Shown here: positions 14,720 to 23,436 of the stretch, in pieces
Position numbering within the stretch: the first letter of the stretch is position 1
How the letters are laid out: the number at the start of each line of letters is the position of its first letter
From: a virus
Taxonomy: Duplodnaviria > Heunggongvirae > Uroviricota > Caudoviricetes
Direction: 5' to 3' (one strand)
IMG/VR virus record: IMGVR_UViG_2740892439_000006
Span: 1 to 53,794 of that record
DNA length: 53,794 bases
Notes under the pieces: model-generated
Told to the model about the DNA's origin: nothing
The model's input: the letters and a program-made list of their open reading frames with translations, nothing else
The model's database searches: none
Translations under genes and position numbers: made by a program

Positions 14720-14821
14720 AATACTGACTGTTGCGCCCTGGCATTATCGTGGGGTATATTTCTACGGCACCTTAGAAAAACGGGTGCCGGGATTGAGACC
14801 CCGGATAATGCAAAAGGCGAC

Positions 14822-14848
14822 ACAGACGCCGAAAGCGTCTTTTTTTGT
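14822..14848 (+). terminator. rho-independent terminator
   Basis: stem agacgc/gcgtct, loop cgaaa, followed by T7. Confidence 0.6.
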
Positions 14849-14895
14849 GTCATGCCATCGCACAGCCATACGTAGCGTATAGCTCCAAGATCAAT

Positions 14896-14971
14896 GGTAG
14901 TGCTGGCTGGGCTGCCGAAAGGCAGGCCGGTTCCCTTTTGCGCCGGTAGTCTCAACCCAGCCAGTGCTACC
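14896..14971 (+). ncRNA. candidate structured RNA (c4-like antisense RNA position)
   Basis: 16-bp stem ggtagtgctggctggg/cccagccagtgctacc enclosing hairpin ctgcc-gaaa-ggcag, about 60 bp upstream of small ORF plus antirepressor. Confidence 0.3.
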
Positions 14972-15031
14972 GCCATTGAGATTGAGACCTCACGCGGTAG
15001 CTCCTTAAATTAGCAAAAGGAGGCTGCCAAT

Positions 15032-15247: not shown

Positions 15248-16173
15248 TGAATCTGTCCATCTCTCAAAAAGCGACAATGACAAGTATTGAGATCGCGGAG
15301 CTGGTGGGTAAGCGTCCTGACAACGTTAAACGCACCATTGAACACCTAGCGGAACGGGGCGTAATAACTTTTCCTCAAATTGAGGAAAAGCCCACCGCAG
15401 GCCGCCCGGCGAGCTATTACGTCTTCGAAGGCGAACAAGGCAAGCGCGATAGTATTATCGTCGTCGCGCAGCTCTCTCCCGAATTCACCGCCCGGCTGGT
15501 GGACCGCTGGCGCGAACTGGAGAGTGCCAAAGTACAGTTAAAATCAAAAGCCGAAATCCTAGCTGAAATGGCGCAAATGCATCTTGAGCATGAACGCCGG
15601 ATCAACGCCGTAAATGCCCAGGTAGCCGAGGTATCAGCACAAGTATCGATGGTCGCTGAAACACTCGAGCAAATAAAGAAAGGCAATATTCCGGAAGGCT
15701 ACATTGGCTACCGCCAGCTGGCGGCGAAATGTGGCCTGACTGAAGCCAAATGCCGAAACCTGGTCAACGCTTACCGGATTCCCACCGATACGCATGAGTT
15801 TTTAACTCCCGATGGTTTGCTTGCGCGACGCTCCATTGTGGCCCTGGCCCCCTTCCGGAAAGCCTTTAAGCAGGTGATGTCGGAGGCAGAACCACGCAAT
15901 AAACGCTGGTATCATCCAAAGATGGGGATGTTTCAGGCAATCCACCATCCTGTGCCTGAAAGTCCAAAGGCAAACCTGTCGTTGCATACCGCCAGAGAGA
16001 GGATTAAAACAGGCTATGCAATCGTATGCCGTCGAGCATCCTGGCCTGAAGGTGTATGGGTGTGGCCCGAAGGTGGATCACGAAAGCACTGGCGCACTAT
16101 CCGGGATGGGAAAATCCATGCGATTGATTTAGCTCCAGAGGATGTTGTTGCTACGGACTGGATTGTTAGTTAA
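15247..16173 (+). CDS. Rha-family antirepressor-like protein with DUF2829-like C-terminus
   Basis: N-terminal SIEIAELVGKRPDNVKRTIEHL (Rha-like); C-terminal YAIVCRRASW...DLAPEDVVATDWIV resembles the DUF2829 region of ORF 972..1649. Confidence 0.55.
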   Translation: MNLSISQKATMTSIEIAELVGKRPDNVKRTIEHLAERGVITFPQIEEKPTAGRPASYYVFEGEQGKRDSIIVVAQLSPEFTARLVDRWRELESAKVQLKSKAEILAEMAQMHLEHERRINAVNAQVAEVSAQVSMVAETLEQIKKGNIPEGYIGYRQLAAKCGLTEAKCRNLVNAYRIPTDTHEFLTPDGLLARRSIVALAPFRKAFKQVMSEAEPRNKRWYHPKMGMFQAIHHPVPESPKANLSLHTARERIKTGYAIVCRRASWPEGVWVWPEGGSRKHWRTIRDGKIHAIDLAPEDVVATDWIVS

Positions 16174-16181
16174 TTACTGTT

Positions 16182-16206
16182 GCCCCGGCCTGTCCGGGGC
16201 TTTAAC
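16182..16206 (+). terminator. weak terminator-like hairpin
   Basis: gccccgg/ccggggc stem followed by ttt. Confidence 0.35.
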
Positions 16207-16232
16207 TACTAAATAACCGGATTCTCCGCACG

Positions 16233-16517
16233 ATGAAGAAAATAGATTTCACTTACTCTGCTGCCACAATCCAGCGACGTTTCAGTCTCATAAGGGAAGT
16301 GGAACTATCAAAAAACTACTATCAAATTCTACTGGATGAAGAGTTTTCACTGATGGTTATAGCAGAAAAATTGGCTATGCCGAATGACCGGCACAAGGTC
16401 ATAGCCAGCCTGGATCTGGTGACAAACAGATACTGGGAATACGAGGAACTACTTGAAGTTGGCTTGATACGCGAGATGATAGAACAGGCTGTTCCCCTCC
16501 ACTTACAGCAACCATAA
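16233..16517 (+). CDS. hypothetical protein
   Basis: 94 aa ORF at start of AT-rich island. Confidence 0.4.
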   Translation: MKKIDFTYSAATIQRRFSLIREVELSKNYYQILLDEEFSLMVIAEKLAMPNDRHKVIASLDLVTNRYWEYEELLEVGLIREMIEQAVPLHLQQP

Positions 16518-16653
16518 TTGAAAGATCTTAACGATAGTCTGCCACGAATAGTTACTTCCACTGCCTAAAGTTATTTAATTGCATTACAAAGTGTAAATTA
16601 GTAACATTAGAATCTCACACAGCACTATAACTATATGTTTTTTATGTAAAAGG

Positions 16654-17013
16654 ATGATAATCGTGGCTACTAAAATTAAACTTGAAAACCCTCAAACTGG
16701 CGAATCAATCACCGGTTTTTATGGTTTTTCCTGGACTACATTCTTGTTTGGTGCTTTTCCAGCTTTGTTCAGGAAAGACTTTATAACTTTTATTGGGGTA
16801 TTTGTAGTTATGCTGATACTGGCATTCCTCACAGCCGGAATTGGCCCGTGGATTGCCTCATTTATCTGGGCGTTCATGTATAATAAATATTTCACCGTAA
16901 ATAAGATAAAACAAGGCTTCATTTTTGCTGGTTCTCACACAGAAAATGAGTTGGCTGCTAGCAAGCTAGGATTGTCATTAAATCAAAACAACTGCAAAAC
17001 TATTACCGAGTAA
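16654..17013 (+). CDS. hypothetical inner-membrane protein
   Basis: 119 aa with two hydrophobic segments. Confidence 0.4.
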   Translation: MIIVATKIKLENPQTGESITGFYGFSWTTFLFGAFPALFRKDFITFIGVFVVMLILAFLTAGIGPWIASFIWAFMYNKYFTVNKIKQGFIFAGSHTENELAASKLGLSLNQNNCKTITE

Positions 17014-17052
17014 AACCAAAAAGCAGGCTTAATAGTAAGCCTGCTATGTCAA

Positions 17053-17886
17053 TCACGAATCTCTCTGACAATTCAGAAACATAAACGCCCGCTTGTCTGT
17101 TAAATCCGTAACATAATACTCTCTCATGCCTGTAGGTTTTATTCTACGAGCATATACAAACTTATGAACTGGTTGTTTTTCCCCATAACTTACATCAGTC
17201 CTAAATTCATCAACCACGCTACCATCTTTTTCAGTTTCCTTTCTCACTAGCTGATTTTCTAATACAGGCTTTGATTCGTCCATGCCACTAAAAGCATCCT
17301 GACCTGTGCTGTTGCCTCGGTTTCCGCGTGGCAAATCCCATGAAAAATAAGTGCCATAGTCAGTAATCACACGATCCCATGTTCCGGAATCCCCCATATA
17401 GTTAGAACGCTCCCCCTTGTAAGTTACAGCCACCTTACAGGCATACGTTTCACCATTATTTTTTTTATCATGTCCAGCCATGCTTGCAGGAGTTGCAGGG
17501 GAATTATGAATAGATGCGCTTACATCATCTTGCGTTAATTCCTCAACTGGAGCAAATTCATATATGGGTGTGCCGAGGCTATTTAAATATAACTTATATC
17601 TAACCCTAAGCGCACTTCCATCTGAGAATTCATACGTTCCCAGGCATTGGAGCTTATTGTTTTCTCTTATCTCATTGATCTGATTATAAGCATCAATTAC
17701 AGAGATTGCTTCCTGCTCGTCCTTCAGCAGTTCATTATAATCATCGATTAACATCTGCCTAGTTTTAGGGGAATTGCAGTCAATTTTGCTAAAATCATAA
17801 GCAAAGGTGAGTGTGGGAACAAAAAGAGCAACAACAGTAGCTAGTATTGTTGAGGAAAATCTTTTTCCATTTTTTATAAAAAACAT
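17053..17886 (-). CDS. putative secreted protein (moron)
   Basis: Start at MFFIKNGKRFSSTILATVVALFVPTLTFA (signal-peptide-like) with RBS ggag; AT-rich. Confidence 0.45.
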   Translation of the reverse strand: MFFIKNGKRFSSTILATVVALFVPTLTFAYDFSKIDCNSPKTRQMLIDDYNELLKDEQEAISVIDAYNQINEIRENNKLQCLGTYEFSDGSALRVRYKLYLNSLGTPIYEFAPVEELTQDDVSASIHNSPATPASMAGHDKKNNGETYACKVAVTYKGERSNYMGDSGTWDRVITDYGTYFSWDLPRGNRGNSTGQDAFSGMDESKPVLENQLVRKETEKDGSVVDEFRTDVSYGEKQPVHKFVYARRIKPTGMREYYVTDLTDKRAFMFLNCQRDS

Positions 17887-18175
17887 TTCATTAACTCCAT
17901 ACCTTACCATCTTAGCCGCGAGCGCGGTCCCTAAAACCATTAACTTCACTGCACCGTCCTTCATGCAATCAAAATGACTTTTATGTTATAAAAATAATCA
18001 GCCAAATCAACATGATTTAGGCCAAATTTCTGTCAATAAATAAAATCCACAAAAAGTGGTTGACACTATTTTGGAAATCACAAACTGCACATAATCCATC
18101 GCGCTAACGGCTCCCGTTGAAGGTTCTTTTGACGATTAACTTTCAGCCGAAGCGCGGTAGGGAGTCATAACGCCA

Positions 18176-18206
18176 AAGCAGGCCGCCATGTGCGGCCTTT
18201 TTTTTG
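18176..18206 (+). terminator. rho-independent terminator
   Basis: stem ggccgc/gcggcc followed by T8. Confidence 0.6.
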
Positions 18207-18232
18207 TATCCGTCATCCGTGGAGGAAGGACA

Positions 18233-18886
18233 ATGGAAAAGATCGCAATATTCAGCCTGACCACCAGCAAGCCTCAAATGCTCACTGCAATACTGAAAGA
18301 CGGTGCTCTCATTATTAACGAAGTAAAACCCCTTCCCGCGTCAGCATTGGAGCAAAAGCAAAAAATTCCTCCAGCTATAGCAGCCCTGCGGAAAAGCAAA
18401 TTTAAGGTACTGGTAGACGAAATTACGCCAACGATCTCCGCTGGCACCGGAGCAAGCCAGGTGACTCTCAAGACCCGTCATGCCGATGGTAGAGCAGCAA
18501 TCATCGTCGGGATGGAAAGATACAGAGAGTTAAAACTCCAGAAGCTATTATCCCTGCCGCAAAATAACAAAGGTGCTTTCGAAATCCCTGACTCCATCGT
18601 TGACACCGAATACAACGGTAACGGAGAAGAAGTCTACCGGGTGAACTGGCAGGATATCAGGCCGGAACATATTCTGATGGTCCTGTGTTGTTACGCGACC
18701 GTATACCACAACGTTGCCAGTGCGGATTACGTAGAGCAAATGACCGGTACAGTCGAGAAAGAGCAAAAAACAGGCATACTCGCTTCGTTCCTTTCCATTA
18801 TTGGGCATGAAAAAGTTAAAGCAGGCACCTCCCAGCCAAAGTCACTGGCTGGGAAAGAAGTTGATGAAGATACCGTGATACTTTGA
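18233..18886 (+). CDS. hypothetical protein
   Basis: 218 aa from MEKIAIFSL; RBS ggaggaagg. Confidence 0.45.
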   Translation: MEKIAIFSLTTSKPQMLTAILKDGALIINEVKPLPASALEQKQKIPPAIAALRKSKFKVLVDEITPTISAGTGASQVTLKTRHADGRAAIIVGMERYRELKLQKLLSLPQNNKGAFEIPDSIVDTEYNGNGEEVYRVNWQDIRPEHILMVLCCYATVYHNVASADYVEQMTGTVEKEQKTGILASFLSIIGHEKVKAGTSQPKSLAGKEVDEDTVIL

Positions 18887-19214
18887 TCACATTAGTAGCT
18901 TTGTTAACTCCCTCAATACCAGGTAGAAGAGTAACAAAAATATTAACGCGAGTATTTGAGTGGTCAATGAAGCGTTCATAAACAGATCAATTAGCATTAA
19001 TAATTCGAAGATAACATCCATGTCATTCACTCCGTTTAATTTTTAATCTAATGCCAGCAAATGAAGCTGGCCCCCGCATAAAGATTAATGAAAGTCACTT
19101 GTCACCAGTGAGGGGATTTATGAACCACATCCCCCTGAACTGGTGGCCTGTCTGTTTCTCGCATTTCACACCCTGCATACAGTTTCCCCTAAGTTATGAC
19201 TGAGAGGCTTTGTT

Positions 19215-19544
19215 ATGGGCTATAGCAGACTCGACGATAGGTACATTGAAGACGATATTTTTCGTGCGCTGTTTCACCAGGAAATGATTAAGCGGGTATC
19301 GGAGTATCACTCTGATAATTTCCAGTACACGATAAAGATTGATGAAGTATATCGTTCAGACCTTGCAGCCTACCGGGCGTATGGCAATGCAGATTTACGC
19401 TGGGTATTCCGGGTGCTGGTGGGCCATGAGTCAGAAATGGAAGAAATGCCCGCAGGGACCACATTAACTCTTCCTGATGTGGCATGGCTGAGGAACAAGA
19501 TCCGTGATTACGCGAGCGCGGAACCGGAGATAGAAAATGCCTGA
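19215..19544 (+). CDS. hypothetical protein
   Basis: 109 aa; stop overlaps next start. Confidence 0.45.
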   Translation: MGYSRLDDRYIEDDIFRALFHQEMIKRVSEYHSDNFQYTIKIDEVYRSDLAAYRAYGNADLRWVFRVLVGHESEMEEMPAGTTLTLPDVAWLRNKIRDYASAEPEIENA

Positions 19545-20730
19545 TTTCCTGAAAAACCAAGACGGGCGCTATATCACTGATGGCCTGTCCTCTAAGGACT
19601 TCACACGTTTATTCGACCTTATCAGTAAAGAACAAACCCGTAAGCGCCGACAAGCTCACCGGACGCTGACGCCCGGCAGACTGAGGAACAAATCCGCCGA
19701 AGATATTCTCAAGTTGGGGAAGAAGAAAGGCGGCACATTCTTTACGCGAGACGATCTGAAAGGTTTCGAAAAGCTACGGAGTAAAACGCGCGAAAAATAT
19801 GACAGTAAGACGGCAGGCATCACATACGCCCAGCTGGTGGCATCCAGCCAGGCAATCGATATTAAGCGTGCAAATAACGCCGTGGATGACGGATCTGGTA
19901 TCAAAAGAGCTACACCCGTCTCTCTTCGCCACAATGTGATTAATATCCGCGTAGAAGCATCGGATATATCCGTCCACCAGCACCATATCGTCCGGATACG
20001 CTTTGAAGAATGGGATCAGATGGTTGATGACATCGCAGAAGACGATAAATCAGCTCTGAAAATCACTAAATCACTGTGCGCCGGGCGAGTGTCTTTCGAT
20101 TGTGACTGTGGTCGTCATCAATACTGGTATCGTTACATCGCTACTGCGGGTAACTTTGCCCTGGCCCCGCCAAAAGAATACGCCTATCCAAAAGTCCGTA
20201 ACCCTAAGCTACAAGGCGTCGCCTGTAAACACGTGATCCACTCAATGACGCGGTTACAATCCGCAAGTTGGCAAATGAGTATTGCTCGTGCACTACAAAA
20301 GGCTGCAACGCAAATTGCATTTGGTGACGATCGCCGACGTACAACCAAACACTTCTCAAAAGAAGACGAGAAGGAGTTTAATCGCAATCGTAGCAGTAAA
20401 ACGAACGTTGAAGCCGCCAAACGCGAATGGAGACTCTATCAGAAGCGCCAGGCAGCTTTAAGTACAAAACTGGCAAAGGACAACGGCAAGATCGACAAGC
20501 TACGTGACCAATTGACCAGGGCCAGAAAGTTGTCAGACGCACAGAAAAAACGGGCGGCTGCAAAAGAAGCGGCCTTGCAACGTGAGAAACAGAAAAATAA
20601 GGAACTTCAGCAACGCCTTGCCGATCAGTTCGCACTGAAGAAGCAGGCGTTCATTGATGCGCTTGTCATGGCTGGAACGCCACAAGAACAGGCTGAGAAG
20701 ATGTTTATAGAGTACGTGAAAAAAGCATAA
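19537..20730 (+). CDS. SWIM-zinc-finger-like protein with C-terminal coiled coil
   Basis: FDCDCGRH...(n)...CKHV fits CxCxnCxH; basic coiled-coil tail. Confidence 0.5.
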   Translation: MPDFLKNQDGRYITDGLSSKDFTRLFDLISKEQTRKRRQAHRTLTPGRLRNKSAEDILKLGKKKGGTFFTRDDLKGFEKLRSKTREKYDSKTAGITYAQLVASSQAIDIKRANNAVDDGSGIKRATPVSLRHNVINIRVEASDISVHQHHIVRIRFEEWDQMVDDIAEDDKSALKITKSLCAGRVSFDCDCGRHQYWYRYIATAGNFALAPPKEYAYPKVRNPKLQGVACKHVIHSMTRLQSASWQMSIARALQKAATQIAFGDDRRRTTKHFSKEDEKEFNRNRSSKTNVEAAKREWRLYQKRQAALSTKLAKDNGKIDKLRDQLTRARKLSDAQKKRAAAKEAALQREKQKNKELQQRLADQFALKKQAFIDALVMAGTPQEQAEKMFIEYVKKA

Positions 20731-20775
20731 ACCACACATAGCCTAGTAGTTTATGCTGGGCTTTCATTTTTTTGA
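20717..20775. terminator. bidirectional terminator between convergent genes
   Basis: stem agcataaac/gtttatgct flanked by A-run and T-run. Confidence 0.5.
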
Positions 20776-21492
20776 AAGATCAATTCCAGTATTATCAAAT
20801 AAACTGGAAATATCAGACACCAATTTATTAAAATGCTTGTCATCATTATAGAATGATGTGCTTTTTATAGCGACTATAAAATCACATAAATCTTGCGGAG
20901 ATTCAATGCTAACACCCTTATTTTTATATAGTTCAATAATACTGCCAACATCAGTATGCAATAGTTTTATCGCGCCACAAATTTCTCGCTGTTTCGTAGT
21001 TAGGTCATTAAGTTTATTTTCATTTTCATATAAGATTTGTTTTGAATATTTAGCATCATTGGTTGCTTGATTTAACTTTGTTTTCTTTCTTTGCAATTCT
21101 ATTCTTTTATCATAATCAGCAACTTCATCTAAATATCTTATTTCAGTGTATAATTTACTTGTTAGCTTAGATATCTTCAGTGTGAGAAAAGGAGCTAATA
21201 CAGATGCAAATACTCCATAAATAAATGGAATTACAACGTGATAAACCCACGGGGATACAATCCAATTATCAAAGAACGGGACATTACCACCAACAAAAAC
21301 AATAGATAATGTATATAGGATGTCGTCCTTTGACTTTAATATAATTAAAATATCCTTCCAGTTAATGATTAGAAAAGAAATGACAACATATGCAAAAACC
21401 TTGTTAAATATTTTATCTTTTATAATCTCAGAAAATGATTTTAGTTCTGTTTCATTTATAGACGGATTATCTTTAACTTTTTCTGACATCAT
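20764..21492 (-). CDS. membrane protein with cytoplasmic coiled coil (Abi-like candidate)
   Basis: 242 aa, very AT-rich codon usage, hydrophobic N-terminal half. Confidence 0.45.
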   Translation of the reverse strand: MMSEKVKDNPSINETELKSFSEIIKDKIFNKVFAYVVISFLIINWKDILIILKSKDDILYTLSIVFVGGNVPFFDNWIVSPWVYHVVIPFIYGVFASVLAPFLTLKISKLTSKLYTEIRYLDEVADYDKRIELQRKKTKLNQATNDAKYSKQILYENENKLNDLTTKQREICGAIKLLHTDVGSIIELYKNKGVSIESPQDLCDFIVAIKSTSFYNDDKHFNKLVSDISSLFDNTGIDLSKK

Positions 21493-21513
21493 AGCTTATC
21501 CTGATTACTTTTA

Positions 21514-21714
21514 TTATGGATAGTTAAAAGATTCAACAGGTGATGGTGGCTGAATTGGGTAATGTTTCTTCTCGTACTCCTCAATGAGAAGACTCATAAC
21601 CTCAAAGAAATCACCTTCCGGAGTATTCATTTCCGGTTCGTTATCGAACATCGGTTCGACAGCACGCAGTGCGGCCTCATAATCTTGTTCTGTACGGATA
21701 GGTTTAATGTTCAT
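21514..21714 (-). CDS. HigA-like N-terminal domain fragment (no HTH)
   Basis: 66 aa; TEQDYEAALRAVEPMF...EPEMNTPEGD resembles N-domain of two-domain HigA antitoxins. Confidence 0.4.
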   Translation of the reverse strand: MNIKPIRTEQDYEAALRAVEPMFDNEPEMNTPEGDFFEVMSLLIEEYEKKHYPIQPPSPVESFNYP

Positions 21715-21726
21715 TAATTACAAAGG

Positions 21727-21758
21727 AAAGCCCACTTGCTAAGTGGGCTTTTTGTATG
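21727..21758. terminator. terminator-like hairpin
   Basis: stem agcccactt/aagtgggct followed by ttttt. Confidence 0.35.
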
Positions 21759-21770
21759 TGTTTTACTATA

Positions 21771-22109
21771 TCAGGCTGCTTTTTTATTCAGGTTCCGCTG
21801 AGAAATAAATTTTTCAGCAGTATTGATACGACTTAACTCTTCCTGAACGCGCATATCATTTTCGACTTCCCACAGGTCTACTGCGGTCTGAAGATTAATC
21901 CAAAAATCTACAGAAGTATCGAATGCTTTTGCCAGGCGATATGCCATATCCATCGTTAGCTTACGATTATTATTAACAAGAGCACTTACGGTGTTACGAT
22001 GAACATGAAGTATTTCTGCTAACTCGTTGATCTTCAGCTCTAACGGCTCCAGGTATTCGTACAGCAGGATATCACCTACGGTCGTCGGTTTTCTGGTTGC
22101 CTGTTTCAT
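21771..22109 (-). CDS. higA: HigA-family antitoxin (XRE HTH)
   Basis: VGDILLYEYLEPLELKINELAEILHVHRNTVSALVNNNRKLTMDMAYRLAKAFDTSVDFWINLQ matches HigA family pattern. Confidence 0.7.
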   Translation of the reverse strand: MKQATRKPTTVGDILLYEYLEPLELKINELAEILHVHRNTVSALVNNNRKLTMDMAYRLAKAFDTSVDFWINLQTAVDLWEVENDMRVQEELSRINTAEKFISQRNLNKKAA

Positions 22110-22179
22110 TTTTTGCCCTTACTAGCGTGCGTATTAAGTGGACTCTGGTCAGAACCCGGTCCGTAACCGGGTATCTGTT

Positions 22180-22482
22180 TTAGTATTTGTGAGGGTCGAG
22201 ATACAAGTCCTCGGCCTTTCCGTTAACCCACTTAAAAATTAACCTATATTGCTTATTCACCCTTACTGATGAATAGCCATTTAGCTTCCCTGACAGTTCC
22301 TCATACCGATTACCTGGTGGTGATCTTAAATCCTTACAGGTAGTTGCGGCATTGATAATGTCCAACTTCCGTGACAATGTCATATGAATATCAGGAGGTA
22401 TCTTTCTATGTGGTGTTGAAAATTCAAAAAAATCATCAAGCCACGCATCCCTGAAATCCTTTATGTTAATTTTTTTGGTCAT
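22180..22482 (-). CDS. higB: HigB-family toxin (RelE/ParE superfamily)
   Basis: LRSPPGNRYEELSG...YSSVRVNKQYRLIFKW matches HigB pattern; upstream of higA. Confidence 0.7.
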   Translation of the reverse strand: MTKKINIKDFRDAWLDDFFEFSTPHRKIPPDIHMTLSRKLDIINAATTCKDLRSPPGNRYEELSGKLNGYSSVRVNKQYRLIFKWVNGKAEDLYLDPHKY

Positions 22483-22632
22483 TAGTCATTTGATCCTCCG
22501 TGATGATTACCGAATGCCATAACTATAGCGCACCGTTGCACTGTGCGCAAGTGCATTTTATGAATTCCCCCTCCTTCATCCAAAATCACAATCTCCAGAA
22601 AATCTTCCTTTCGATACCTGACAGATCGACCT

Positions 22633-23436
22633 TTGAGGATGCTTATGGGCCGTTTTGACGAATGGTTTGCTGACGATGCAAACCTGGCAAGTAAGGAGTC
22701 AGAACATGACAGCACGCAGAGAGAAACGCCAGCGCCGATTGAAGCGAATGCAGGAGGCGCGCCGGAACATGGCAATACAGGTTCGGATTCATTCAGCATT
22801 CTGGAAGAGCAACCCGCCGCCAAAGCTGATAGCCATGATAATTTTGCTGATAGCAACGGTGGCCTTACTCCGGATGCTGGCGAATCAGATATAGCCATAC
22901 TTCCATCTTCCCTGGCTGGCAGAGAACCGACTCCACAGTTAAAAGCACGCTATAACGGGCATAAAGCCTTTAACGACCAAATCCGCGCAGACTGGATGCT
23001 GATTATTGAATCCAGCCCAGACGCGTTTCAGGCTCTCTTATATCGACCAGATGTTGGCACATATGGGGTAGTCAGCGACGAAACAGGAGAAGAGTCATTC
23101 ACTGAACTGGATAACAACCAACGCGAACTGACTTACCAGGAACCTGAAATCGTTTATGTGCTGGATAACCCTGACGGGCGTGACTCTTTCCATGCGATTG
23201 ACGCAGACGGTGAGCAGGATGGCTTAACCGATGATGTTCTGATTCTGCGTATTGCAGCAAATAACGTCCCCGTCGGCTCAATTCTTGAATGGAATGAAGA
23301 GATGGTAAACGGCGTAGCGCGCCGCTGGTGGTACGTGCACCGTATTTTTAGCTACGGCACACAGCATGTTGGTTCGCTTTACTACTGCATACCTGCCAGG
23401 AATTTTGATACGACTCAAAACGGAGTGATCGAATGA
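22633..23436 (+). CDS. hypothetical acidic protein (start uncertain)
   Basis: 267 aa track ORF; 3-prime end coupled to next gene (ATGA); N-terminal part overlaps an SD-preceded small ORF in another frame. Confidence 0.35.
   Translation: MRMLMGRFDEWFADDANLASKESEHDSTQRETPAPIEANAGGAPEHGNTGSDSFSILEEQPAAKADSHDNFADSNGGLTPDAGESDIAILPSSLAGREPTPQLKARYNGHKAFNDQIRADWMLIIESSPDAFQALLYRPDVGTYGVVSDETGEESFTELDNNQRELTYQEPEIVYVLDNPDGRDSFHAIDADGEQDGLTDDVLILRIAANNVPVGSILEWNEEMVNGVARRWWYVHRIFSYGTQHVGSLYYCIPARNFDTTQNGVIE
22706..22894 (+). CDS. small basic protein with C-terminal transmembrane helix
   Basis: Strong RBS taaggag 7 nt upstream of ATG; 62 aa, R/K-rich N-terminus then hydrophobic stretch. Confidence 0.35.
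   Translation: MTARREKRQRRLKRMQEARRNMAIQVRIHSAFWKSNPPPKLIAMIILLIATVALLRMLANQI

Follow-up and report, generated by a model that had tools for sequence, protein, structure and literature searches.

The locus described here lies at positions 16233–21492 of a 53,794-nucleotide stretch of virus DNA (IMG/VR record IMGVR_UViG_2740892439_000006), which is referred to as the window. In a megablast search, positions 16000–22000 matched Escherichia phage D6 (NC_050154) with 95.4% identity and 98% coverage, together with 122 plasmids of E. coli, Salmonella and Shigella in PLSDB with identities up to 98.2%, 120 of which are non-mobilizable and most of which are about 90 kb in size. These sequence matches place the window within the P1 family of phage-plasmids, as a D6-like element. 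Each gene of the interval has its counterpart in the D6 annotation, with D6 orf73–orf81 in one-to-one correspondence, and the locus is already essentially annotated in phage D6. A preliminary description placed the interval between an immI-like unit and higBA, which is correct: to the left lies the immI unit, i.e., the C4 antisense RNA at 14890–14977 (Rfam), then icd, then a Rha-type ant ending at 16173, and to the right lies higBA (21771–22482). The same description saw in the interval a single AT-rich accessory island in which none of the genes resembles core phage functions. The genes with homologues in P1, identified by tblastn against the P1 genome, are the following.

16233–16517, plus strand: pmgF-like gene, 94 aa, P1-family backbone; 42% identity over 76 aa to P1 PmgF (E = 4e-11), phrog_7349
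18233–18886, plus strand: mat (maturation control) homologue, core; 33% identity over 208 of 217 aa to P1 Mat (E = 1e-35), phrog_1837 (E = 4e-94), GC 0.476
19215–19544, plus strand: gene 26 homologue, baseplate protein (T4 gp53-like), core; 41% identity over 96 aa to P1 gp26 (E = 8e-19)
19537–20730, plus strand: gene 25 homologue, tail stability, core; 56% identity over 359 aa to P1 gp25 (E = 8e-123), phrog_1722 tail protein (E = 5e-196)
22645–23436, plus strand: gene 7 homologue (tail), in the right flank where the tail operon resumes; 46% identity to P1 gp7 (E = 3e-43), also in the D6 annotation

The presence or absence of each gene was scored by tblastn in nine D6-like relatives. All nine carry mat, 26 and 25 with 82–100% amino acid identity, and the pmgF-like gene is found in seven, in one of them as a 27-aa fragment only. 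Homologues of gp25 occur in 862 PLSDB plasmids. The product of gene 26 matches phrog_1269, annotated as "baseplate wedge subunit" (E = 2e-36), and the "Gp26" chain of the PDB entries 9ay5 (chain S) and 9vzk (phmmer, E = 1e-16). P1 gp26 was earlier predicted to be the counterpart of T4 gp53 (PMC9024508), and a subsequent structure of the P1 tail-baseplate showed six gp26 copies linking the hub to the spearhead (bioRxiv 10.1101/2025.07.21.665459). P1 gp25 is the product of a classical "tail stability" gene and gives a weak signal in virion mass spectrometry (PMC9024508); no homologue of it was found among PDB chains. The known essential genes of P1 include mat, 25 and 26, while pmgF and simABC are non-essential (Piya et al., PMC10695390). 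The statement that no gene of the interval resembles a core phage function is thus contradicted by mat, 26 and 25 and, for the first gene, by its likeness to pmgF, and genes that every relative shares and that have assigned structural roles are what the preliminary description itself had named as speaking against its idea.

Genes 26 and 25 overlap by 8 nt and follow each other in the same order as in P1. In the preliminary description this pair appeared as an accessory two-gene operon ending in a SWIM-zinc-finger/coiled-coil protein. The overlapping pair and the C-terminal coiled coil of the gp25 homologue are real, and so is a set of Cys/His residues (C189-x-C191...C230-x-H232, i.e., CxC-x38-CxH) that is invariant between the window protein and P1 gp25 in a sequence alignment with ~50% overall identity. 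However, neither the window gp25 nor P1 gp25 matches Pfam SWIM (PF04434) or any other Pfam family at E ≤ 5, and the accessory operon is simply P1 genes 26 and 25. The 38-residue spacer between the two halves of the motif also exceeds that of typical SWIM domains. The motif is a conserved, possibly metal-binding feature of gp25 and no evidence for a defence protein, and its pattern suggests a so far unrecognised metal-binding module in a P1 tail-assembly protein.

The base composition of the interval can be read in the same light. The interval has a GC content of 0.416 against 0.465 for the window, and no other stretch of 5.26 kb is lower (0.7th percentile among windows of this size), so the visibly low GC reported earlier is correct. 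However, it does not form one block. The first part, 16233–18232, has a GC of 0.395, the middle 2.5 kb (18233–20730) is at backbone level with 0.471, and the right part, 20731–22482, has 0.355 and continues past 21492 to about 22482, so as to include higBA. The lowest GC in the window is that of orf73 (20764–21492; GC 0.283, GC3, i.e., GC at third codon positions, 0.214). The low GC of the interval therefore sits in two separate blocks. A single accessory or defence island of 5.26 kb without core phage functions would account for the low overall GC and for the fact that the eight proteins in or abutting the interval, from the pmgF-like protein to a 66-aa open reading frame (ORF), all lack a Pfam match. 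However, such an island would have to include a middle part at backbone GC that encodes the homologues of P1 mat, 26 and 25, one of them a baseplate protein of solved structure, all of them shared by every relative and by hundreds of P1-family plasmids, and we regard this explanation as almost certainly wrong. Instead, the interval is, with good confidence, a mosaic in which the usual tail and maturation genes of a phage-plasmid of the P1/D6 type are flanked by two small AT-rich cargo slots. In this reading, the backbone genes (pmgF-like, mat, 26 and 25) are vertically inherited late and morphogenesis genes acting as in P1, i.e., in the building and maturation of tail and baseplate, and the two AT-rich ends are horizontally exchanged cargo slots of a kind usual in temperate phages and phage-plasmids. 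The content of both slots varies between relatives that are otherwise 93–100% identical.

The first slot lies between immI and mat and contains two convergent genes.

16654–17013, plus strand: small membrane protein, 119 aa, cargo; strong hydrophobic segment at residues 43–61, GC 0.375
17053–17886, minus strand: exported two-domain protein, 277 aa from M27, cargo (ORF to 17964, 303 aa); Sec-type signal peptide, SimB-like N-domain, conserved C-domain

Each of the two proteins is present in only two of the nine relatives. The 119-aa protein has no P1 counterpart by tblastn; its homologues are found in jumbo coliphages of the 121Q/PBECO4 type (54–58% identity) and in Lactobacillus phages (~30%). 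In the 303-aa ORF, the hydrophobic signal segment ends with TFA/YDF, and residues 57–148, i.e., the N-domain only, are 49% identical to P1 SimB (E = 8e-22). A similarity to SimC was not found, the best BLASTP E value being 0.96 and tblastn giving no match. The family of this exported protein is modular: in some members the N-domain is swapped for an unrelated one, and the C-domain of about 130 aa is kept. The real start of the protein is probably M27, where the phrog_13054 alignment begins. The 26 codons before it (17887–17964; MKDGAVKLMVLG..., MKDGAVKLMVLGTALAAK...) show homology to the signal-peptide start of the alternative slot-1 genes of relatives L010 and L011 and are the leftover of a previous occupant, i.e., a cassette-replacement scar just downstream of the old start codon. 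In other relatives, the place directly before mat on the opposite strand is taken by other signal-peptide proteins, of 202 aa and 130 aa, which are fused into one 277-aa protein in the metagenomic relative L016; similarity to P1 sim was sought in these alternative proteins and not found. The small membrane protein, the Sec-exported SimB-domain protein and the other exported proteins that relatives have in this slot suggest an envelope-acting function, which by analogy with P1 sim would most likely be superinfection exclusion. Sim has been described as possibly blocking DNA injection by superinfecting phages. For D6-like plasmids, it has already been reported (PMC6799933) that a simB homologue is present while simA and simC are missing, with variation around it.

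The second slot lies between genes 25 and 7, where 1.9 kb of opposite-strand DNA splits the P1 tail operon. Its genes are the following.

20764–21492, minus strand: orf73, 242 aa, cargo slot 2; hydrophobic segments at ~34–52 and 86–104, long helix
21514–21714, minus strand: 66-aa remnant of a HigA2-type (PD-Lambda-2_B-like) antitoxin or regulator; PADLOC PD-Lambda-2_B, positions 1–65 of 402 (E = 2.5e-16)
21771–22109, minus strand: higA antitoxin, 112 aa; Pfam HTH_3 (E = 7e-11), phrog_1381 plasmid antitoxin, HigA in D6 and plasmid annotations
22180–22482, minus strand: higB toxin, 100 aa; Pfam PF05015 HigB-like toxin (E = 4e-35)

Read along the minus strand, the order is higB, higA, a terminator, the 66-aa ORF, orf73 and a second terminator. 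The toxin gene (22482–22180) precedes the antitoxin gene (22109–21771). The higBA pair of D6-like plasmids has been described as a post-segregational killing system (PMC6799933), and from its family membership we assume the window pair to be an intact plasmid-addiction module. The 66-aa ORF is the N-terminal stump of a 119-aa helix-turn-helix (HTH) protein of D6, with the HTH lost by a ~200-bp deletion or at a recombination junction; in relatives, the intact 119-aa gene is paired with a HigB-family toxin of the PF09907 type. As for the three ORFs singled out in the preliminary description, i.e., the signal-peptide ORF on the opposite strand (17053–17964, minus), the small membrane ORF (16654–17013) and the convergent membrane/coiled-coil ORF (20764–21492, two hydrophobic segments and a long helix), all were described correctly.

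Among the relatives, whose flanks on either side of this place are nearly identical, slot 2 contains higBA, the 119-aa HTH gene and an orf73-like gene in D6, L005, L009, L011 and L021. In L006 it contains the PF09907 HigB-family toxin and the 119-aa HTH protein and nothing else, in L007 the PF09907 HigB-family/HTH pair with an orf73-like gene, and in L016 a ParE with an HTH protein and an orf73-family gene. In E. fergusonii and some E. coli relatives (L008, 7698–8237; L010, 11070–11609), the slot is occupied by a YjaZ-like gene alone, which encodes a full-length homologue of chromosomal YjaZ, the "stationary phase growth adaptation protein" (NCBIfam equivalog, E = 1.7e-100). For the genes that follow the insertion, 7-24-6-5, no recognisable sigma-70 or P1-type late promoter was found in 22483–22644, although D6 is a viable phage. 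A box AAATGACTA at 22484–22492 was considered as such a promoter and is taken as coincidental, as it overlaps the ribosome-binding site and start codon of higB. In the divergent higBA promoter region, an inverted repeat TGCACTGTGCGCAAGTGCA at 22537–22555 resembles a HigA operator. Slot 2 is thus an insertion that splits 26-25-7-24-6-5 and carries higBA, the HigA2-type stump and orf73 on the opposite strand.

The most distinctive gene of slot 2 is orf73. What the present analysis newly recognises is the orf73 family, together with the exchange of its alleles and its frequent position beside toxin–antitoxin (TA) or defence-type genes. The protein has no match in Pfam, NCBIfam or PADLOC, and PHROGs assigns the cargo genes to families of "unknown function". 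A word-indexed search with orf73 returned E. coli proteins only, and an exhaustive HMMER profile search returned 45 cluster representatives, 8 of them below 1e-30. The 28 representatives that could be aligned (~200–320 aa) share the N-terminal motif KDRLxNxxFGYxxxSFxxxNWQxIxIxxKSKxDI and a second hydrophobic segment with conserved Pro residues, followed by a variable coiled coil and a small C-terminal domain. When these 28 members were scanned against PADLOC, only coiled-coil noise was obtained (e.g., LmuB, JetC). An AlphaFold2 (AF2) model built from three sequences was unusable (predicted local distance difference test, pLDDT, 46), and the model built from the 28-sequence alignment (pLDDT 78) consists of short helices at 12–65, a loop, a continuous helix at 81–192 and two short helices. 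The orf73 product is predicted to be an inner-membrane protein with two hydrophobic segments and a helical stalk of ~110 residues. A Foldseek search of the model against PDB and BFVD gave nothing below E = 0.6, i.e., nothing significant; a likeness to K+ channels or holins among the top matches was rejected for this reason and for the "VGG" loop, which is not conserved in the family.

The gene orf73 is under purifying selection. Its ratio of nonsynonymous to synonymous differences (pN/pS) against a 97.5%-identical allele is 0.26; for gp25, mat and gp7 the ratio is 0.02–0.08. An ungapped value for the SimB-domain gene against L002 was discarded on account of an indel. At the same time, its alleles across relatives are 97, 60, 60, 43, 39 and 38% identical, beside a gp25 that is 93–99% identical, and three of the nine close relatives lack the gene. 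Nucleotide identity to D6 is 0.93–1.00 across 16–23 kb except for 20701–21600, which comprises orf73 and the deletion junction and where it falls to 0.58–0.84 (in bins free of the deletion gap). This sharp and limited drop indicates that the orf73 cassette has been exchanged within an otherwise conserved backbone. One could suppose that the AT-rich ORFs persist as leftovers without a function and that scars of recombination lowered the GC as a neutral side effect, and the slots do contain one clearly decayed gene, the 66-aa HTH stump, and an old signal-peptide remnant at the 5' end of the 303-aa ORF. However, the pN/pS of orf73, its intact frame in 71 plasmids at ≥90% identity (i.e., at least 90%), the N-terminal motif kept across the 28 diverse aligned sequences and the intact higBA genes with their strong Pfam matches make this explanation very unlikely.

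The family as a whole was seen only on mobile elements, and D6-like elements place it in the slot between 25 and 7. Matches are found in 156 PLSDB plasmids, 71 of which carry the orf73 of the window lineage as given above; 54 Klebsiella plasmid records contain a family match. Among 50,697 phage records, only D6 has orf73. A profile scan of genome contigs with a narrower orf73 alignment found a single Enterobacter locus. In a P1-like lineage of Citrobacter, E. coli and Salmonella, a member lies in the bplB–pmgC tail-gene junction, after TacA-TacT and a 68-aa ORF, which in L013 shows weak similarity to the HigA2 N-terminus. On the K. pneumoniae IncFIB plasmid NZ_CP045194 (L020, 4204–5414), IS66 and IS110 elements flank a cassette for a HigB-family toxin and an HTH antitoxin, together with a 137-aa protein like the N-terminal part of orf73. 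The presence of this trio on large non-phage plasmids indicates that it moves outside phage-plasmids. In four of the nine independent contexts, a type II TA pair (three to four different families) lies immediately upstream of the orf73 member in the same orientation, which is suggestive. One member lies two genes from a WYL-domain regulator. In a chromosomal island with resolvase and recombinase genes (L018, 4309–5732), a distant member begins 12 nt downstream of a DUF4145 gene whose product matches PD-T7-4, a single-gene system in PADLOC (E = 4.8e-13); the DUF4145 and orf73-family genes possibly form a two-gene unit. Solitary members (L012, L017, L022–24) were found in the Enterobacter chromosome between asr and an M32 peptidase gene, in a phage-like contig and in an H-NS/DUF4942 island.

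The contexts bear on the question whether orf73 could be an obligate third part of a HigB2/HigA2-derived TA or abortive-infection (Abi) system akin to PD-lambda-2, which in the window would be degenerate, with an unrelated higBA and a cut antitoxin, and orf73 an orphan remnant. PD-lambda-2 is a validated three-gene Abi system with a HigB-like A, an HTH-peptidase B and a P4-antitoxin-like C (Vassallo et al. 2022, PMC9519451). In the E. coli plasmid L007 and in L020, the gene order is indeed PF09907 toxin, HTH antitoxin and orf73-family gene, and the L007 toxin matches PD-Lambda-2_A (E = 2.6e-42) and its HTH protein PD-Lambda-2_B at positions 1–119 (E = 6.9e-43). Other members follow ParE/HTH or TacA/TacT pairs, and the L013 member is preceded by the short ORF resembling, weakly, the HigA2 N-terminus. 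However, members without a TA neighbour exist in the Enterobacter chromosome, a phage contig and two genomic islands, and the TA partners belong to unrelated families (HigB2/HigA2-type, PF05015 higBA, ParE/HTH, TacA/TacT), which fits slot sharing better. Moreover, orf73 matches neither the peptidase part of PD-Lambda-2_B nor any PD-Lambda-2 model, and it is kept under purifying selection in the 71 plasmids despite the truncated HTH gene. We therefore consider an obligate tripartite system improbable. The solitary members argue instead that the protein works alone and merely shares slots with TA modules; in the preferred reading of two exchangeable cargo slots, orf73 would share its slot with TA modules rather than be an obligate component of them.

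For component A of PD-lambda-2, the window HigB (PF05015) has no PADLOC match, and the PF09907 toxin of the A type is found only in relatives L006, L007 and L020. For component B, the 66-aa remnant covers 1–65 of the 402 model positions, without the HTH and without the ImmA/IrrE peptidase, and for component C no PD-Lambda-2_C match was obtained among the ten proteins scanned, from the pmgF-like protein to HigB. The remnant is the only PADLOC match among the cargo; PADLOC-DB v2 returned zero families for orf73, the 119-aa protein and the SimB-domain protein. The PADLOC and HMM searches called for in the preliminary description thus yielded a likeness of the remnant to the PD-Lambda-2_B N-terminus but no defence model for the other cargo, and the comparison across relatives showed two variable slots but also middle genes conserved in all nine. 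The proposed defence hotspot is not supported for the interval as drawn. What does stand is that both AT-rich ends are variable cargo slots, with a TA pair, a SimB-domain exported protein and a membrane protein, and a defence hotspot is a reasonable though unproven idea for 16.5–18.2 kb and 20.7–22.5 kb.

As to physiological roles, we infer those of the SimB-domain protein, the 119-aa protein and orf73 from their predicted properties and surroundings. The gene orf73 would be a self-contained membrane-acting accessory gene expressed from the prophage, and its role would most likely be exclusion or protection of the lysogen of the abortive-infection type. Several observations weigh against this. 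No PADLOC, Pfam or NCBIfam model covers orf73, the 119-aa protein or the SimB-domain protein and orf73 has no significant fold match, so the exclusion or defence role rests on context. The similarity to SimB spans just a third of the exported protein, and SimB itself is an uncharacterised "accessory" ORF of the P1 sim operon, in which the P1 annotation names SimC as the superimmunity protein. The nearest relatives of the 119-aa protein are those of jumbo coliphages and Lactobacillus phages, which fit a lytic-cycle role at least as well as lysogen protection. Finally, a sequence scan identified no promoters for the slot genes.

An alternative is that the membrane and exported cargo proteins serve the lytic cycle of the phage, e.g., in lysis timing, envelope remodelling or help with the tail and DNA injection, instead of protecting the lysogen. 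The cargo genes are surrounded by late genes, with a perfect match to the P1-type late promoter close by (19082–19100), and, besides the phage relatives of the 119-aa protein, two hydrophobic segments with a long helix are also reminiscent of holins or lysis regulators; the non-significant top fold matches include holins and ion channels. However, orf73 and the gene for the SimB-domain protein run against the direction of the late operon, with terminators of their own on either side. In addition, orf73 is missing from three and the SimB-domain gene from seven of the nine close relatives, and orf73, found in no phage record but D6, is present on non-phage Klebsiella plasmids and in chromosomal islands. 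A lytic-cycle function is for these reasons unlikely in our view. Protection of the lysogen by exchangeable cargo is preferred over it, and one specific form of this may be put forward tentatively, as a possibility short of an expectation: the orf73 family could be a new single-gene membrane-acting exclusion or abortive-infection determinant that travels with TA modules in tail-operon junctions of phage-plasmids, on Klebsiella IncF plasmids and in genomic islands, has its alleles swapped between nearly identical backbones as in an arms race and is maybe switched on via the neighbouring TA promoter upon antitoxin loss.

The remaining features of the locus are hairpins and the short region between mat and gene 26.

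16182–16200, plus strand: GC-rich hairpin after ant, weak terminator with a 3-T tail; read from the sequence, not called by the terminator scan
17022–17045, minus strand: terminator between the convergent 119-aa and SimB-domain genes; 10-bp stem, then TTTTTGGTTTT
18180–18198, plus strand: strong terminator-like hairpin AGGCCGCCATGTGCGGCC + T8; 35 nt upstream of the mat start, on the mat strand
18887–19030, minus strand: conserved 47-aa hydrophobic ORF (D6 orf77); tblastn match in nine of nine relatives (51–98%), no P1 counterpart
19082–19100, minus strand: exact P1 late-promoter consensus AAGTGACTT-N4-TAATCT, pointing at the 47-aa ORF; zero mismatches, consensus from P1 late promoters
20740–20762, no strand assigned: hairpin terminator between the convergent gene 25 and orf73, left edge of slot 2 (terminator scan); nucleotide identity to D6 drops from this point on
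21725–21753, no strand assigned: bidirectional terminator hairpin between higA and the 66-aa ORF (terminator scan)

Terminator-like hairpins are enriched, with 20 observed against 7.0 ± 2.2 in shuffles. Those at 17022–17045, 20740–20762 and 21725–21753 bracket gene units, with a further one at 18180–18198. The earlier view of an island bounded by terminators is thus borne out by the enrichment, but not on the left, where the hairpin at 16182–16200 has a tail of three T and escaped the scan. The hairpin at 18180–18198 (region 17965–18232) has no plus-strand gene upstream of it. It may act as an attenuator or mark where a small RNA ends; the RNA fold of the mat leader does not reach significance (z = −1.6). 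A late-promoter-like box AAATGACTT is also seen upstream of mat at 17974–17982. P1-type late promoters at ≤2 mismatches are not enriched, with 3 observed against 4.6 expected, and among them only the one exact match deserves attention. By analogy with the box shared by LP26 and LPpmgL in P1, the palindromic −22 box at 19082–19100 may also serve gene 26. Between mat and 26, the window has only the 47-aa ORF and this late-promoter box; in some D6-like plasmids the same position is a third cargo slot with a RelE/ParE-HigA pair (L008, 5306–5877; L009, 5152–5723; L010, 8653–9224). In the immI region upstream of icd/ant, Rfam places isrK (59 bits, 14767–14845) beside the C4 antisense RNA (76 bits, 14890–14977), both on the plus strand; these were the only two Rfam matches, and both are outside 16233–21492. 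A P1-type C1 operator (ATTGCTCTAATAAATTT, ≤3 mismatches) was found nowhere in the whole 53.8 kb, which is consistent with a D6-like immunity specificity distinct from that of P1.

The main value of these results is corrective. Low GC and the lack of an obvious function had led core tail and baseplate genes of the P1 type to be filed as defence cargo, and the coordinates 16233–21492 are unfit for a defence-island call. What can be used instead is the precise location of two recombination slots of D6-like phage-plasmids, one between immI and mat and one between genes 25 and 7; such elements are common in E. coli and Salmonella from clinical and livestock sources. The orf73 family consists of uncharacterised membrane proteins found repeatedly beside TA or defence-type genes and offers a cheap and well-defined candidate for phage challenge; if the family were indeed protective, a small single-gene system would be added to those known to be borne by phage-plasmids.

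Among known elements, the closest to the window are phage D6 and D6-like plasmid prophages, e.g., pYU39_89, which share its gene order with 95–98% nucleotide identity across the interval. Compared with D6, the window carries a different orf73 allele (60% amino acid identity; nucleotide identity 0.58–0.84 over 20701–21600) and the ~200-bp deletion that cuts the counterpart of D6 orf72 from 119 to 66 aa. With P1, the window shares homologues of 26, 25 and 7 from the late operon 26-25-7-24-6-5, as well as of mat and pmgF, at 33–56% amino acid identity, and the adjacency of 26 and 25 is kept. However, genes 25 and 7 are 3 nt apart in P1, whereas 1.9 kb of opposite-strand cargo separates them in the window; mat adjoins 26 here but ref in P1, and pmgF follows ant here but bplB in P1. 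The P1 sim operon (simA-simB-simC) resembles slot 1 in that a gene for an exported protein lies near immI on the opposite strand, with the window N-domain 49% identical to SimB. In contrast to P1 sim, the window has no SimC homologue and, according to the literature (PMC6799933), no SimA, and its protein has an extra conserved C-domain of ~130 aa that is not in P1.

The likeness to PD-lambda-2 consists of the three-gene TA-derived layout, which it shares with the HigB/HTH/orf73 cassettes of the relatives. However, these cassettes have neither the peptidase nor C, and their third gene belongs to the unrelated orf73 family; with the peptidase and C missing, and A missing too in the window, membership in PD-lambda-2 fails. 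The pair higBA itself corresponds to the type II TA systems of the Rts1/Proteus HigBA type, in which a PF05015 toxin gene lies upstream of an HTH_3 HigA gene. The window pair has the same toxin-first arrangement, and its sole peculiarity in comparison with this type is its location inside a tail operon.

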